In this document: positions 25,999 to 44,095 of the stretch, piece after piece
Layout: each line of letters opens with the position of its first letter
Position numbering within the stretch: the stretch's first letter is position 1
Sequence record: PV660453
From: Escherichia phage LF82-10
DNA: 52,895 bases
Direction: 5' to 3' (one strand)
The notes under the pieces: model-generated
The model's input: the letters and a program-made list of their open reading frames with translations, nothing else
The model's database searches: none
Told to the model about the DNA's origin: nothing
Position numbers and translations under genes: made by a program

Positions 25999-26934
25999 TT
26001 ACTCCAGTCTGTCAATAAGAGATTGCGGATCGTATAGCCTACGCTGCATCCCCTGGCGGAAATTGTCATTGTTCGGCAAGATTACCCTCAGATCCCGATC
26101 GTCAGCCATGCACAGGGTTTGGTAATCGGTAGACAGGCAAGCAACGCGAAGCTCACGATCTCCTTTGTATCGCCAAGCCACAATTTCAAGGTTCTCGGGC
26201 GTGAAAGTGACCCATACTTCCTGATTGGTTGCCGTCGCTACGCGATGCCCTTCGATTATGTCGCACACCAGATAAATAGAGCCAGTGCCAGCACCAAGCT
26301 TAACAACTGAACCGCGAGAATGATCGCGAGCCATAAAAGAATATTCCCCACTTTCATTAACAAACAGGATATTACACATTTCATCATCCAATCCTTCCGG
26401 TTGAGCGAGATAGCACGGATATGCATGAATAAGCGATTCTCCGCCATTCTCGCGAGGTTTTACGCCTACAATGAATGATTCATCCAATAGGCACTCATAA
26501 ACGCTTAGAGGCGTGCTGGCTCGCAATTCAGTGCGCTCCATAACAGCCATACAGGCATCGTGATCAACTTGCTTGCCAATATTGGCATCGGTTGTTCTCG
26601 CTATGCGCTTGTAAGCCTTCACGCGGTACTCTTGCGGAACCTTGCCCAAGAAGCGCCCCAGGATGTTAACCGCCTCGCTGTATGGCTCACCAGTCAGCTT
26701 CATGACCCAGCCAATGCCTTTATCGTTACCGCATGCGTTACAGATCGCCCCGCCGTCACCCTTCGACTCAAGGTTATCAGTCCAGCGGAAGCGGTCATTG
26801 CCGCCACAGTTTGGGCATGGCTGGTGTTTGCCATTGAATACGGTTGAGGGAAGAGCGCATATTGACTGCAACGCCTCGCGCCATAATCCTTTCATGTATG
26901 GCAAAACTTCCTCTTTCTGGTACATCATCGACAT
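25999..26934 (-). CDS. putative DNA primase
   Basis: 311 aa; N-terminal zinc ribbon CPNCGG-(x19)-CNACG like primase zinc-binding domains; adjacent to helicase module. Confidence 0.5.
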   Translation of the reverse strand: MSMMYQKEEVLPYMKGLWREALQSICALPSTVFNGKHQPCPNCGGNDRFRWTDNLESKGDGGAICNACGNDKGIGWVMKLTGEPYSEAVNILGRFLGKVPQEYRVKAYKRIARTTDANIGKQVDHDACMAVMERTELRASTPLSVYECLLDESFIVGVKPRENGGESLIHAYPCYLAQPEGLDDEMCNILFVNESGEYSFMARDHSRGSVVKLGAGTGSIYLVCDIIEGHRVATATNQEVWVTFTPENLEIVAWRYKGDRELRVACLSTDYQTLCMADDRDLRVILPNNDNFRQGMQRRLYDPQSLIDRLE

Positions 26935-33099: not shown

Positions 33100-33204
33100 A
33101 TGAAATCTATCTTAATCAACGTGGTCTGTTTTGCATTGGGCGCTGGCGTAGTTGCTTCCAGCCTTTGGGTTATCAATCTCGCTTCAGTATTCAAGGGCTT
33201 CTAA
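33100..33204 (+). CDS. small hydrophobic peptide (34 aa)
   Basis: ATG with SD GAGGAG; single predicted TM segment; below ORF-track size cut-off. Confidence 0.3.
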   Translation: MKSILINVVCFALGAGVVASSLWVINLASVFKGF

Positions 33205-33378
33205 ATGAAAGTTAAATGTATTCGCAATGACTCTAAATCGCTCCCGTTCCATGTGAACCAGTTTTACTCTATCGGGTTCGATCACGGCGGCGGGAACTTC
33301 GAAATTTATGACGGTTGCGGCTCCTGTATTATTGCCCCGCTAAATGGGCATTATCTGGAATTCGTTATCGTCAAATAA
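33205..33378 (+). CDS. hypothetical small protein (MKxKC-family)
   Basis: 57 aa; TAAATG coupling to upstream peptide; N-terminus MKVKCIRN shared with 45397..45762. Confidence 0.4.
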   Translation: MKVKCIRNDSKSLPFHVNQFYSIGFDHGGGNFEIYDGCGSCIIAPLNGHYLEFVIVK

Positions 33379-33404
33379 AGCAACACATTCATCACCTTAC
33401 CTAT

Positions 33405-33445
33405 CGGGAGCCTTTTACGGCTCCCTTTTTTGCTTCTTTTTTATT
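33405..33445 (+). terminator. intrinsic terminator before lysis cassette
   Basis: CGGGAGCC-TTTTAC-GGCTCCC then TTTTTTGCTTCTTTTTT. Confidence 0.6.
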
Positions 33446-33510
33446 CCGAGCCGGGTTACAATCCTTTTACTAACTAAATATTGACATTCAAAGAGTTTAA
33501 GGATCTGATC

Positions 33511-33729
33511 ATGAGGGAAGTAATCAATGCAGTAACCAGCGCCACAGGCGGCGCGTCACTAACCGGAGCGGCTACAGGTCAGTTAGTTATTGCTGGCGCA
33601 ACGTTCGTGCTATTCGTTGGCTTCGGTGTTTGGGGTGCTTACTGGAAATACCAGGACAGCAAAGCAATTCGTGAAGCCCTCAAATCCGGCAATCTGGAAG
33701 AGGCGATCAAACTAAACGGGAAAAAGTAA
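33511..33729 (+). CDS. holin (pinholin-like)
   Basis: 72 aa from ATG 33511; Gly/Ala-rich TM1 and hydrophobic TM2; immediately upstream of SAR endolysin. Confidence 0.6.
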
Positions 33730-33730
33730 C

Positions 33731-34216
33731 ATGAAGAGATTAGTAGCCGGGGCTGCATTCGGTGCAGCTCTCGCCTTAACGCCTCCCCTGGTGGAGCAGG
33801 TTGAAGGCATTCATTACGATCCATACAAAGACATTGCCGGGATCTGGACGGTGTGCGCTGGCATTACCGGGAGCGATGTAGTGCTAGGGAAGCGATATAC
33901 TCAGCGCGAGTGCGATGCGTTGCTTTTCAAGCATATCGAGATCGCAAGGAAGGAAGTTGACAAGCGCGTAAACTATCCGATCCCGGACACGATGCGCGCA
34001 GCAATGTACAGCTTCACGTTTAACGCTGGCACTGGCGCTTTTCGTGGCTCTACAATGCTGAAGCTTATCAATCAGGGCAAGTTGCCTGAGGCATGTAATC
34101 AGCTTTGGAGCTGGACTTACTACACCAACCCGAAGACCGGGAAAAAAGAGAAGTCGAAGGGGTTGAAGAACCGCCGCGCCTTTGAATACAACTACTGCAT
34201 GAAGGAATTAAAATGA
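33731..34216 (+). CDS. SAR endolysin (GH24 lysozyme, phage P21 R-like)
   Basis: 161 aa; N-terminal Gly/Ala-rich signal-anchor-release segment; E-D-T catalytic region [23 protein letters not shown] and [13 protein letters not shown] resemble P21 lysozyme from memory. Confidence 0.85.
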
Positions 34217-34644
34217 AACGCGTAAGCAACTCAATGCTGATCTTCGTAACCATCCTCGTGTTCGTTGCAGTGACTTCGCTATCTGGTTGCTCAACGGCTG
34301 GCGCTCTGACTGGTTTGATCGGCAGCAAGCCGGAAATCTCAGCACAGGCCGGAGCGGAAAACACGAAACAGACGGTTGGCCTAAACAACAAAGTGGATCA
34401 GTCAAGCGAGGTGGAAACCACGATTCGTGATTCAAAGGTTGGAAAGGTTGACAGCTCTAACGGAAAGAAGACCAGCGCATCAAGCATCACGGCTGAAACC
34501 ATCAAGGCCGACAAGATCGAGATTCGCAATAGTGATGGAGAGGCGTTTGGTATTGCGGCTGGTTTCTTCGTCGCTGGTCTGATTGCAGGTTCAAGCGCCG
34601 TTGCATACTTAGCAACGAGACGCAGAAACAACAAAGGAGCCTAA
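34213..34644 (+). CDS. unimolecular spanin (u-spanin)
   Basis: 143 aa; N-terminal lipoprotein signal with lipobox LSGC and C-terminal TM segment ([21 protein letters not shown]) followed by RRRNNKGA; architecture as in T1 gp11. Confidence 0.7.
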
Positions 34645-34660
34645 CGGCTCCTTTTTTATT
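34634..34660. terminator. bidirectional terminator between spanin gene and leftward accessory operon
   Basis: AAAGGAGCC-TAAC-GGCTCC-TTTTTTATT; overlaps both stop codons. Confidence 0.6.
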
Positions 34661-34850
34661 TGTAACGCTTTGCCAGTATCAGAAGTTCACCAGCATCATT
34701 GCACAACGTGTGCTCATCCTTCTTCCCGGCTCGCATCGAACTATTCAGCAGTGACAGCAGGGCGTAATTTAACTCGTCCTCCGTCACCCCTTGAGAGGCG
34801 CAAGCCTCAATAATCGCGTTGATTAGGTTTTGAGCAACCAAAAAGTTCAT
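34656..34850 (-). CDS. hypothetical protein
   Basis: in-frame ATG (MNFLVAQ...) at 34850; 64 aa; last gene of leftward accessory operon. Confidence 0.35.
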   Translation of the reverse strand: MNFLVAQNLINAIIEACASQGVTEDELNYALLSLLNSSMRAGKKDEHTLCNDAGELLILAKRYK

Positions 34851-35169
34851 CGTCGCTGAGCTTGTCAATATTCATCATCTCCCATGTGTAACGATCCTCT
34901 TCACCGCCGTAACAGTTGAAATCAAATTCAAAGGGGCGCTTCTGCGCCCCCTTGCTCCAGTACCAGAGGTTTACGCCGTCAAGGTAGCCCAACCCCATCA
35001 TCCTTGCAACAAACTCCTTAGAAGCGCTTGAGGCGAAGTAACGAGGGGTTACGTTAGCGGCCTTTGCAAGCCGCTCGCACTCGTGATGCTTGAAAATGAA
35101 TTGCGCCAAGTGTTGGCGGTTGAATTTCGTGTAACTCTCACAGAACTTATACAGATCCAGAAGGAACAT
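34807..35169 (-). CDS. hypothetical protein
   Basis: 120 aa; ATG 2 nt after upstream stop. Confidence 0.4.
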   Translation of the reverse strand: MFLLDLYKFCESYTKFNRQHLAQFIFKHHECERLAKAANVTPRYFASSASKEFVARMMGLGYLDGVNLWYWSKGAQKRPFEFDFNCYGGEEDRYTWEMMNIDKLSDDELFGCSKPNQRDY

Positions 35170-42721: not shown

Positions 42722-42930
42722 AGCTTCGAATAGCTATCGTTTCCGTTGTGCTGCCATTCAGCGGCGAGCGCAAAAACACATACGCCGTTCAAAAGCGGAT
42801 CGGCTTCTTCTGGTGGCAGACGCTTACCCTGTGTGACAGCTTGCCCCAGGCGCGCCACTATGTACGCCACACCCTGGAAGATCGCAGTGGTGAAAAGCTG
42901 GTCAAGGTTCTGAATCGTTATTCCTCTTGA
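42718..42930 (+). CDS. hypothetical protein
   Basis: 70 aa; ATGA coupling. Confidence 0.35.
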   Translation: MKLRIAIVSVVLPFSGERKNTYAVQKRIGFFWWQTLTLCDSLPQARHYVRHTLEDRSGEKLVKVLNRYSS

Positions 42931-42945
42931 ATGGAATAATTGGAA

Positions 42946-42960
42946 TAGCACGAACTGCTA
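42946..42960 (+). promoter_or_regulatory. TAGCA-box (TAGCACGAACTGCTA)
   Basis: preceded by GGAATA repeats; -10 CATAAT 42983-42988 inside palindrome GGGGCTATGCCATAATAGCCCC. Confidence 0.55.
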
Positions 42961-43019
42961 AAACACCAGATCGGGGCTATGCCATAATAGCCCTACACCA
43001 ACAAAACGAGGTTAGCACA

Positions 43020-43235
43020 ATGGAAACTGTAACAATCGGCGCTAAGCCGCCATCATTTGACAACTTCCCGTCGCAATTCGTTGAGGATGAATACGGTGAC
43101 GAAACAGAGGTGTCTTTAATTCACTCGTCAGGCAACAAGTCTGTACTCATGGAAAGCGGCAACATGATTTTCACGCCAGATCAGGCGCGCGAACTGGCTG
43201 CGGCTCTCATCAAGGCGGCTGAGGTGTGCGAATGA
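43020..43235 (+). CDS. hypothetical acidic protein
   Basis: in-frame ATG (METVTIG...) after box 42946-42960; 71 aa, Asp/Glu-rich. Confidence 0.4.
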   Translation: METVTIGAKPPSFDNFPSQFVEDEYGDETEVSLIHSSGNKSVLMESGNMIFTPDQARELAAALIKAAEVCE

Positions 43236-43441
43236 AGTTCAAAACTACATACGTATCACCGCGCGCTCGCGTTGCATTCAACCTGCGCAAGGGTATGACA
43301 TACGACGCTGAGAAGATTGGCAATCAGATTTCGGTGCGCGTGCCTATCGGTAGGCTCATCATCAAGCTCCAGGGAGAGAGGTTCATGAGTCGCTCAATGA
43401 CGGGCGAATTACTCGCGGCATGGGAGGAAGTGAAAAAATGA
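43232..43441 (+). CDS. hypothetical protein
   Basis: ATG 43232 overlaps upstream stop (ATGA); 69 aa. Confidence 0.4.
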   Translation: MKFKTTYVSPRARVAFNLRKGMTYDAEKIGNQISVRVPIGRLIIKLQGERFMSRSMTGELLAAWEEVKK

Positions 43442-43746
43442 TGATTTTGAATGACCGAGAGGAGCTACAGGAAGCCGTGAGACTGGCGCTAAAATCAGAC
43501 GTGCCATTTATCGAAGTTGTGCTTTGCGTGGCTGCCAGCCTCGATGTACGGCCCCGTGTGGCTGCTTTCATGGTTCACTCTAACACCTTCGATATGGCTG
43601 GCACATTCCAGGGTGATAAATTCCTTGAATTCTTGATGCAGCTAACCGATAAGTTCGAAGCCATGCATCCTGACCGGATAAGCGCCAGTGGGCAGATCCT
43701 GATCGAGGAGTTCACCAACTTTGTGATTCGCGGTACATGGCGATAG
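43438..43746 (+). CDS. hypothetical protein
   Basis: ATG 43438 overlaps upstream stop; 102 aa; stop TAG embedded in box 43744-43758. Confidence 0.4.
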   Translation: MMILNDREELQEAVRLALKSDVPFIEVVLCVAASLDVRPRVAAFMVHSNTFDMAGTFQGDKFLEFLMQLTDKFEAMHPDRISASGQILIEEFTNFVIRGTWR

Positions 43747-43758
43747 CACTTTTTGTTA
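43744..43758 (+). promoter_or_regulatory. TAGCA-box (TAGCACTTTTTGTTA)
   Basis: TAG is stop of upstream gene; -10 CATACT 43781-43786 after hairpin TGCCGG/CCGGCA. Confidence 0.55.
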
Positions 43759-43816
43759 AACGTGTGCCGGGCTAATCCGGCATACTGTCACCACACCAAC
43801 CAATCAAGAAGTCAAC

Positions 43817-44095
43817 ATGAAGACGTTAAAAGAGATTTTGGCAGAAATTGACGAGGCTGCGCTCAAGGATAATGACGACGAGGCCACAACAAGCAAGAAG
43901 ATCCTGACTTGCGGAGCCACTCACATTGCGCAAGATGCAGACGGCGCAGTATTCGCATTCAGGGGTAAGCCAACCGCCACGAAAATTGAGGATATGACGG
44001 AGTGGTTTAGCGGCGAAAAAGGTGAAGTGCTGTTATTCTGCGCAGACCTGGAAAAGCCAGAAGATTGGACGCAGTGCATTTGGGAGCTGCCATAA
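43817..44095 (+). CDS. hypothetical protein
   Basis: 92 aa. Confidence 0.4.
   Translation: MKTLKEILAEIDEAALKDNDDEATTSKKILTCGATHIAQDADGAVFAFRGKPTATKIEDMTEWFSGEKGEVLLFCADLEKPEDWTQCIWELP

Follow-up and report, generated by a model that had tools for sequence, protein, structure and literature searches.

The segment from position 33,511 to position 34,644 on the plus strand of Escherichia phage LF82-10 (sequence record PV660453) very probably serves a virulent T1-like coliphage (Drexlerviridae) as its lysis module, most likely acting in three steps. The analysis covered the whole stretch of 52,895 nucleotides, called the window in the following. Three plus-strand ORFs occupy the segment, at 33511–33729, 33731–34216 and 34213–34644, with products of 72, 161 and 143 aa, respectively, which were identified as a T1-type holin, a lysozyme of the SAR (signal-anchor-release) type and a unimolecular spanin (u-spanin). 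The ORFs form one translational unit: a single nucleotide separates the holin stop from the endolysin ATG, and the endolysin stop and the spanin start overlap within the ATGA at 34213–34216. The GenBank labels are holin, endolysin and Rz-like spanin. A first-pass annotation made from the letters alone had described a compact three-gene lysis cassette at this place. The ORFs were present exactly there, and PHROG matches backed each of them, together with a Pfam match for the endolysin. The limits of the module turned out to be slightly larger than first described, with a small DUF7244 gene upstream and terminators on both flanks.

Gene order and relationship with T1-like phages

The region was 100% identical to that of the Escherichia phages LF82-11, LF82-12, LF82-19 and LF82-40. 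The local gene order, which is DNA repair exonuclease, DUF7244 protein, holin, endolysin, spanin, terminator and convergent helicase, is the order found in T1. The T1 cassette (NC_005833, positions 42878–43982) shows the same orientation and the same tight packing, with amino acid identities of 66% for gp13 (holin), 67% for gp12 (endolysin) and 39% for gp11 (spanin). It is likewise preceded by the exonuclease and DUF7244 genes and followed by a terminator and a convergent helicase gene. A difference was seen between the exonuclease and DUF7244 genes, where T1 possesses an HNH endonuclease gene and the present phage encodes a 34-aa membrane peptide. A tblastn comparison of the window ORFs with T1 showed that the whole genome is colinear, the main products sharing about 33–79% amino acid identity. 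The lysis module with this local gene order has been found in 508 of 522 Drexlerviridae (PMC13164509), and the cassettes of the T1 type have been described as consisting of a pinholin, a SAR endolysin and a u-spanin (PMC6139136, PMC4559738, PMC11447400, PMC13164509). The T1-like assignment made in the first-pass annotation is therefore sound, resting on the genome-wide colinearity, the T1 local gene order with homologues of gp13, gp12 and gp11, and the match with the Drexlerviridae module.

Outside the LF82 phages, the nearest relatives were Escherichia phage vB_EcoS_NBD2 (KX130668) and the Enterobacter phages Ec_L1 and Phc. At the NBD2-like locus (L016) the holin was 69% identical, the endolysin 71%, the spanin 66% and the 34-aa membrane peptide 58%. 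In Ec_L1 and Phc the C-terminal region of the spanin was 66–68% identical. Over most of the cassette, DNA identity with NBD2, Ec_L1 and Phc was below the reach of megablast. This low DNA identity fits the description of the 53-kb LF82 phages as a new, separate genus-level cluster having its best ICTV match in the Drexlerviridae (PMC12509680).

Signals and small genes around the cassette

A Shine–Dalgarno sequence (AAGGA, positions 33499–33503, plus strand), recognized by inspection, is located 7 nt 5′ of the holin ATG at position 33511. The in-frame TTG at position 33481 was considered as an alternative holin start and rejected, as it is devoid of a Shine–Dalgarno sequence and the resulting extension is not conserved in relatives. 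In the interval between the DUF7244 and holin genes, a terminator-like hairpin followed by a run of T was observed on the plus strand at positions 33406–33425. Its equivalent in T1 is at positions 42781–42807, and compensatory changes preserve the pairing in five relatives. The 3′ end of the cassette is marked by a bidirectional terminator-like hairpin (34633–34654) where the spanin gene meets the leftward genes that converge on it; the T1 equivalent is located at positions 43966–43991.

Within positions 33379–33510 (plus strand), the segment TCATCACCTTAC comes after the DUF7244 stop, is conserved across T1-like phages and is followed by the terminator hairpin. The motif (T)ATTGACA was present about 25 nt 5′ of the holin ATG in five out of six phages. 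If this motif were a −35 box, the transcript start would fall inside the holin ORF. A scan for sigma-70 promoters in 33426–33510 yielded no candidate that passed. Genome-wide, the conserved TATTGACA was not over-represented, with four copies found for 1.4 expected. Additional copies of TATTGACA were seen on the minus strand at 34863–34870 and 26010–26017, shortly 5′ of leftward genes, one of the two lying 13–20 nt before the ATG of a 64-aa gene at 34656–34850. The copies upstream of leftward genes may be the −35 boxes of host-type promoters.

The DUF7244 gene (33205–33378, plus strand) encodes a small SH3-like protein of 57 aa, which matches PF23896 (5e-27) and shares 77% identity with T1 ST14. 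Among 522 Drexlerviridae, DUF7244 was present in 188, always adjoining the lysis genes, and a 2026 paper proposed that this SH3-like protein is an accessory of the Drexlerviridae lysis module (PMC13164509). A role of DUF7244 in lysis is thus hypothesised. By inspection, the protein has no signal sequence. We list it as an associated part of the module, with an unproven role in lysis, because it lacks an export signal and because the terminator hairpin stands between its gene and the holin gene. With no export signal, a route to the peptidoglycan by way of a pinholin is hard to picture. Between the exonuclease and DUF7244 genes, positions 33100–33204 (plus strand) encode the 34-aa peptide MKSILINVVCFALGAGVVASSLWVINLASVFKGF, which has a single transmembrane domain (TMD). 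No Pfam, PHROG or NCBIfam match was obtained for this peptide, and its only counterpart among T1 and 20 related loci was that of the NBD2-like locus mentioned above.

The holin

Judged from its sequence, the 72-aa protein encoded at 33511–33729 (plus strand) is certainly a T1-type holin. In addition to its similarity with T1 gp13, it matched phrog_2877 over its full length at 5e-33, and its relatives carry the precomputed Pfam assignment PF27028. In the copies of Pfam and NCBIfam that were searched, no significant model was found for either the holin or the spanin. Residues 4–45 are uncharged and form two parts with no polar loop between them. The first part, residues 4–22, is composed of 74% Gly/Ala/Ser/Thr and is weakly hydrophobic (Kyte–Doolittle mean 0.87, Hessa sum about +6.8). 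The second part, residues 24–45, is a strongly hydrophobic TMD, whose best 19-residue window averages 2.1 on the Kyte–Doolittle scale, with a Hessa sum close to 0. The C-terminal tail has a net charge of +3. No dual start or antiholin was found in the gene, the ORF containing a single Met.

The first-pass annotation had proposed a pinholin-like holin with a Gly/Ala-rich first segment and had suggested an alignment with the S protein of phage 21 (P21). The Gly/Ala-rich composition of the first segment was confirmed, and no relationship with S21 was detected. S21 and the present holin are similar in size (68–71 and 72 aa, respectively) and in their two-part hydropathy with a weak first segment, but their sequences are unrelated: BLASTP produced no alignment, hhalign gave a probability of 0.3%, and the PHROGs differ (phrog_2877 for the present holin, 20 and 9876 for S21). 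The absence of a polar loop between the segments and of a dual start also sets the present holin apart from S21. The TMD1 of S21, which is established as releasable, is no more hydrophobic than segment 4–22 of the present holin, although its Gly/Ala/Ser/Thr fraction is about 0.45 as compared with 0.74. Given this weak hydropathy of S21 TMD1, the composition of the first segment fits a pinholin-like first helix. The family of T1 gp13-type holins has been annotated as class II pinholins by phage-lysis groups (PMC4559738, PMC11447400, PMC6139136). By analogy, it seems reasonable to call the 72-aa protein a pinholin, as a functional label and not as a statement of membership in the S21 family.

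The endolysin

The 161-aa protein encoded at 33731–34216 (plus strand) was identified as a SAR-type endolysin with a GH24 lysozyme domain of the phage 21 R type. It matched PF00959 (Phage_lysozyme) at 1.5e-34 and phrog_7 at 3e-51. The closest solved structures were those of phage 21 R (3HDE, 3e-39) and of its DLP12 twin, RrrD. The R protein of phage 21 (OL657228; PDB 3HDE and 3HDF) is a true homologue of the present endolysin, with 46% identity at this same E value, and the resemblance of the catalytic region to the P21 lysozyme noted in the first-pass annotation was thereby confirmed. The AF2 model had a mean pLDDT of 89. Its catalytic domain was confident and R21-like and its residues 1–20 were of low confidence. 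The best fold match was 3hde_A: the model fitted the full-length active form of R21 with an rmsd of 2.0 Å, as against 6.2 Å for the truncated form, 3HDF. The catalytic triad E25-X8-D34-X5-T40 (33803–33850, plus strand) aligns with E35, D44 and T50 of R21 and was invariant in all 48 aligned sequences of the family, a number that includes the sequence of the window itself. The two enzymes also share a conserved TVC motif and a Cys-free, Gly/Ala-rich N-terminal anchor, which is about 10 residues nearer to the N-terminus in the present endolysin.

The putative signal-anchor-release segment spans residues 4–21 (33740–33793, plus strand) and comes after the basic residues K2 and R3. As the first-pass annotation had noted, the N-terminus is rich in Gly and Ala, which make up 57% of the residues from L4 to T17. 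The fraction of Gly, Ala, Ser and Thr in the anchor is 0.50–0.64, compared with 0.61–0.65 in the SAR segment of R21. The arrangement was common to the whole alignment (48/48), in which one to three basic residues are followed by an uncharged stretch of 15–20 aa reaching the catalytic Glu. Residues 1–26 of the present endolysin are devoid of Cys, and Cys is absent from the N-terminal stretch in 47 of the 48 sequences. The lack of Cys in the anchor indicates an SAR enzyme of the R21 type and not of the disulfide-caged type of P1 Lyz. By comparison with R21, we infer a putative anchor that would remain uncleaved and be released upon depolarisation.

The spanin

The third gene (34213–34644, plus strand) encodes a 143-aa unimolecular spanin of the T1 gp11 family. 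The 39% identity with T1 gp11 extends over 132 aa (E 1e-27), and the match with phrog_1804 (Rz-like spanin) was at about 4e-45. Matches were found in 1145 phage records, many of them annotated as u-spanin. T1 gp11 possesses the lipobox LSGC and complements lambda Rz/Rz1, and its family is found in cassettes with a pinholin and a SAR endolysin (PMC6139136). This complementation provides the experimental anchor of the functional assignment as a spanin. In phage 21 the spanin is of the two-component, embedded Rz/Rz1 type, unlike the u-spanin of the present phage.

The first-pass annotation had attributed to this protein the T1 gp11 architecture, with an LSGC lipobox and a C-terminal transmembrane segment, and both elements were present. 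The lipobox L23-S-G-C26 (34279–34290, plus strand), located by inspection, is shared letter for letter with T1 gp11, as is the C-S-T sequence which begins with its Cys. The signal peptide has 25 residues (M1–G25), as compared with 21 in T1. The sequence predicts lipidation at Cys26 and, with Ser27 at position +2, sorting to the outer membrane. All 19 relatives examined have Ser, not Asp, at this position. Cys26 is the sole Cys of the protein. The periplasmic stretch that follows is free of Cys and measures 84 aa, for 84–89 residues in the 19 relatives. Its alternating composition, rich in Ser, Thr, Lys, Val and Ile, appears compatible with a domain rich in beta-strands. The C-terminal transmembrane segment comprises residues 112–134 (34546–34614, plus strand) within the uncharged stretch 111–135, with a Kyte–Doolittle mean of 1.8; the basic tail RRRNNKGA (charge +4) comes after it. 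Without exception, the 19 relatives have a C-terminal TMD of 17–25 aa, and their basic tails terminate in K[GE]A.

The TMD was the least conserved part of the spanin family. In the present phage it is Gly/Ala-rich with a GxxxG-like spacing (34546–34644, plus strand), whereas in the C-terminal region of the T1 spanin (43890–43982) it is rich in Leu, Ile and Phe, and the two do not align. The variability of the TMD sequence, together with the conservation of the span length and of the K[GE]A end, suggests that the TMD serves as a generic anchor, with selection acting on the length of the span.

On the plus strand of 33400–34760, no lipobox-bearing ORF was found besides the spanin gene, which argues against a hidden or embedded o-spanin in the cassette. 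A search for internal starts preceded by a Shine–Dalgarno sequence within the spanin gene found none. Such internal starts were reportedly described for T1 gp11 in a J Virol paper of 2018.

Alternative readings of the three proteins

The holin could also be a protein with one helix in an N-out/C-in orientation. The 23-residue N-terminus rich in Gly, Ala, Ser and Thr would then be periplasmic from the start, and the hole would perhaps be large. We consider this reading possible, if somewhat doubtful. It would account for the fact that residues 24–45 alone are clearly hydrophobic, in view of the values given above for residues 4–22, and that the two segments adjoin without a polar loop. The AF2 model, which was confident over residues 21–50 only and was built from a shallow alignment of 15 sequences, shows one continuous helix with no hairpin, although its low N-terminal confidence makes it uninformative on this point; the T1 GenBank record describes gp13 as having a “single transmembrane domain”; and the lack of homology with S21 points in the same direction. 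However, the hydropathy of S21 TMD1, whose release is proven, is equally weak, so that a low value is what is expected of a pinholin first helix, and two helices could fit in the uncharged run 4–45. The N-terminal segment is kept in the close relatives compared, the specialists' annotation cited above is that of a class II pinholin, and large holes are unnecessary with a SAR endolysin as the partner. Moreover, the active pinholin shares the N-out topology, and the two models would consequently differ in a transient state only. We retain the pinholin-like reading of the 72-aa holin as the probable one. It seems to us rather unlikely that the T1 gp13-type holins (PF27028/phrog_2877) would represent a distinct one-helix mechanism, in which the conserved N-terminus would act on timing in the periplasm or at the interface and the DUF7244 protein and the lineage-specific 34-aa peptide would be extra regulators of lysis.

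For the endolysin, we judge it very unlikely that the N-terminus is a cleavable Sec signal peptide giving rise to a soluble, secreted enzyme under some other control. The basic n-region (K2, R3), the short hydrophobic core and the sequence A13-L14-A15, which obeys the −3/−1 rule of a possible signal-peptidase site with G11 at −4, are what such a peptide would display. The evidence from the family alignment on a conserved site was mixed and not decisive: small residues at the positions of A13 and A15, forming an AXA-like pattern, occur in 35 of the 48 sequences, and the other 13 break the pattern, with Met, Leu or Val where residue −1 would be, which indicates that a cleavage site is not under selection. 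A peptide of 15 residues would also be unusually short among the signal peptides of E. coli. As in R21, the hydrophobic stretch leads without interruption to Glu25 of the catalytic triad, and in the crystal structure of active R21 (3HDE), a close homologue, the anchor is still in place. A freely secreted active muramidase would, in addition, cause premature lysis. The reading of the N-terminus as a signal-anchor-release segment is thus preferred. As to the 143-aa protein, other lipoproteins, Cor for example, are known from T1-like phages, and the Pfam copy searched contained no model for it, which would leave room for a superinfection-exclusion or other accessory lipoprotein. This is hardly conceivable for a homologue of T1 gp11, which functions in the place of lambda Rz/Rz1, when both membrane signals are present, the gene closes the cassette with a start that overlaps the stop of the endolysin gene, and no alternative spanin candidate occurs in the cassette.

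A proposed model of the lysis process

We propose that lysis by this phage would proceed in three steps. In the first step, the 72-aa holin would accumulate in the inner membrane, and its timed triggering would collapse the proton-motive force. The holes would be formed by the strongly hydrophobic helix 24–45, and the N-terminal segment rich in Gly, Ala, Ser and Thr probably behaves as a pinholin first helix that can be released. In the second step, the 161-aa GH24 lysozyme, already exported by Sec and held inactive at the membrane by the uncleaved anchor 4–21, would be freed by the depolarisation. It would then refold in the manner of phage 21 R, with no cysteine cage, and degrade the peptidoglycan. 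In the third step, the 143-aa spanin, lipidated at Cys26, would be attached to the outer membrane, its C-terminal helix staying in the inner membrane. Once the meshwork of the wall is gone, the spanin would fuse or disrupt both membranes and the virions would be let out.

The identity and homology of the genes, their architecture and their synteny come from the present analysis; the timing, the size of the holes, the release of the anchor and the fusion of the membranes are carried over from homologues that have been studied by experiment. In the literature searched, these were only T1 gp11 and phage 21 S and R, and no experimental tests of the present phage, of T1 gp12 or of T1 gp13 were found.

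Significance

The cassette is already known and annotated, and it is ordinary for T1-like phages. The novelty that is left concerns the whole family, in which T1-type holins and endolysins bear the names pinholin and SAR endolysin by prediction. The present results allow two GenBank labels to be made more precise, from “Rz-like spanin” to “unimolecular spanin, T1 gp11 family” and from “endolysin” to “SAR endolysin, R21 type”. In practical terms, the analysis confirms the standard Drexlerviridae lysis module in a phage infecting LF82, which helps in judging therapeutic candidates.
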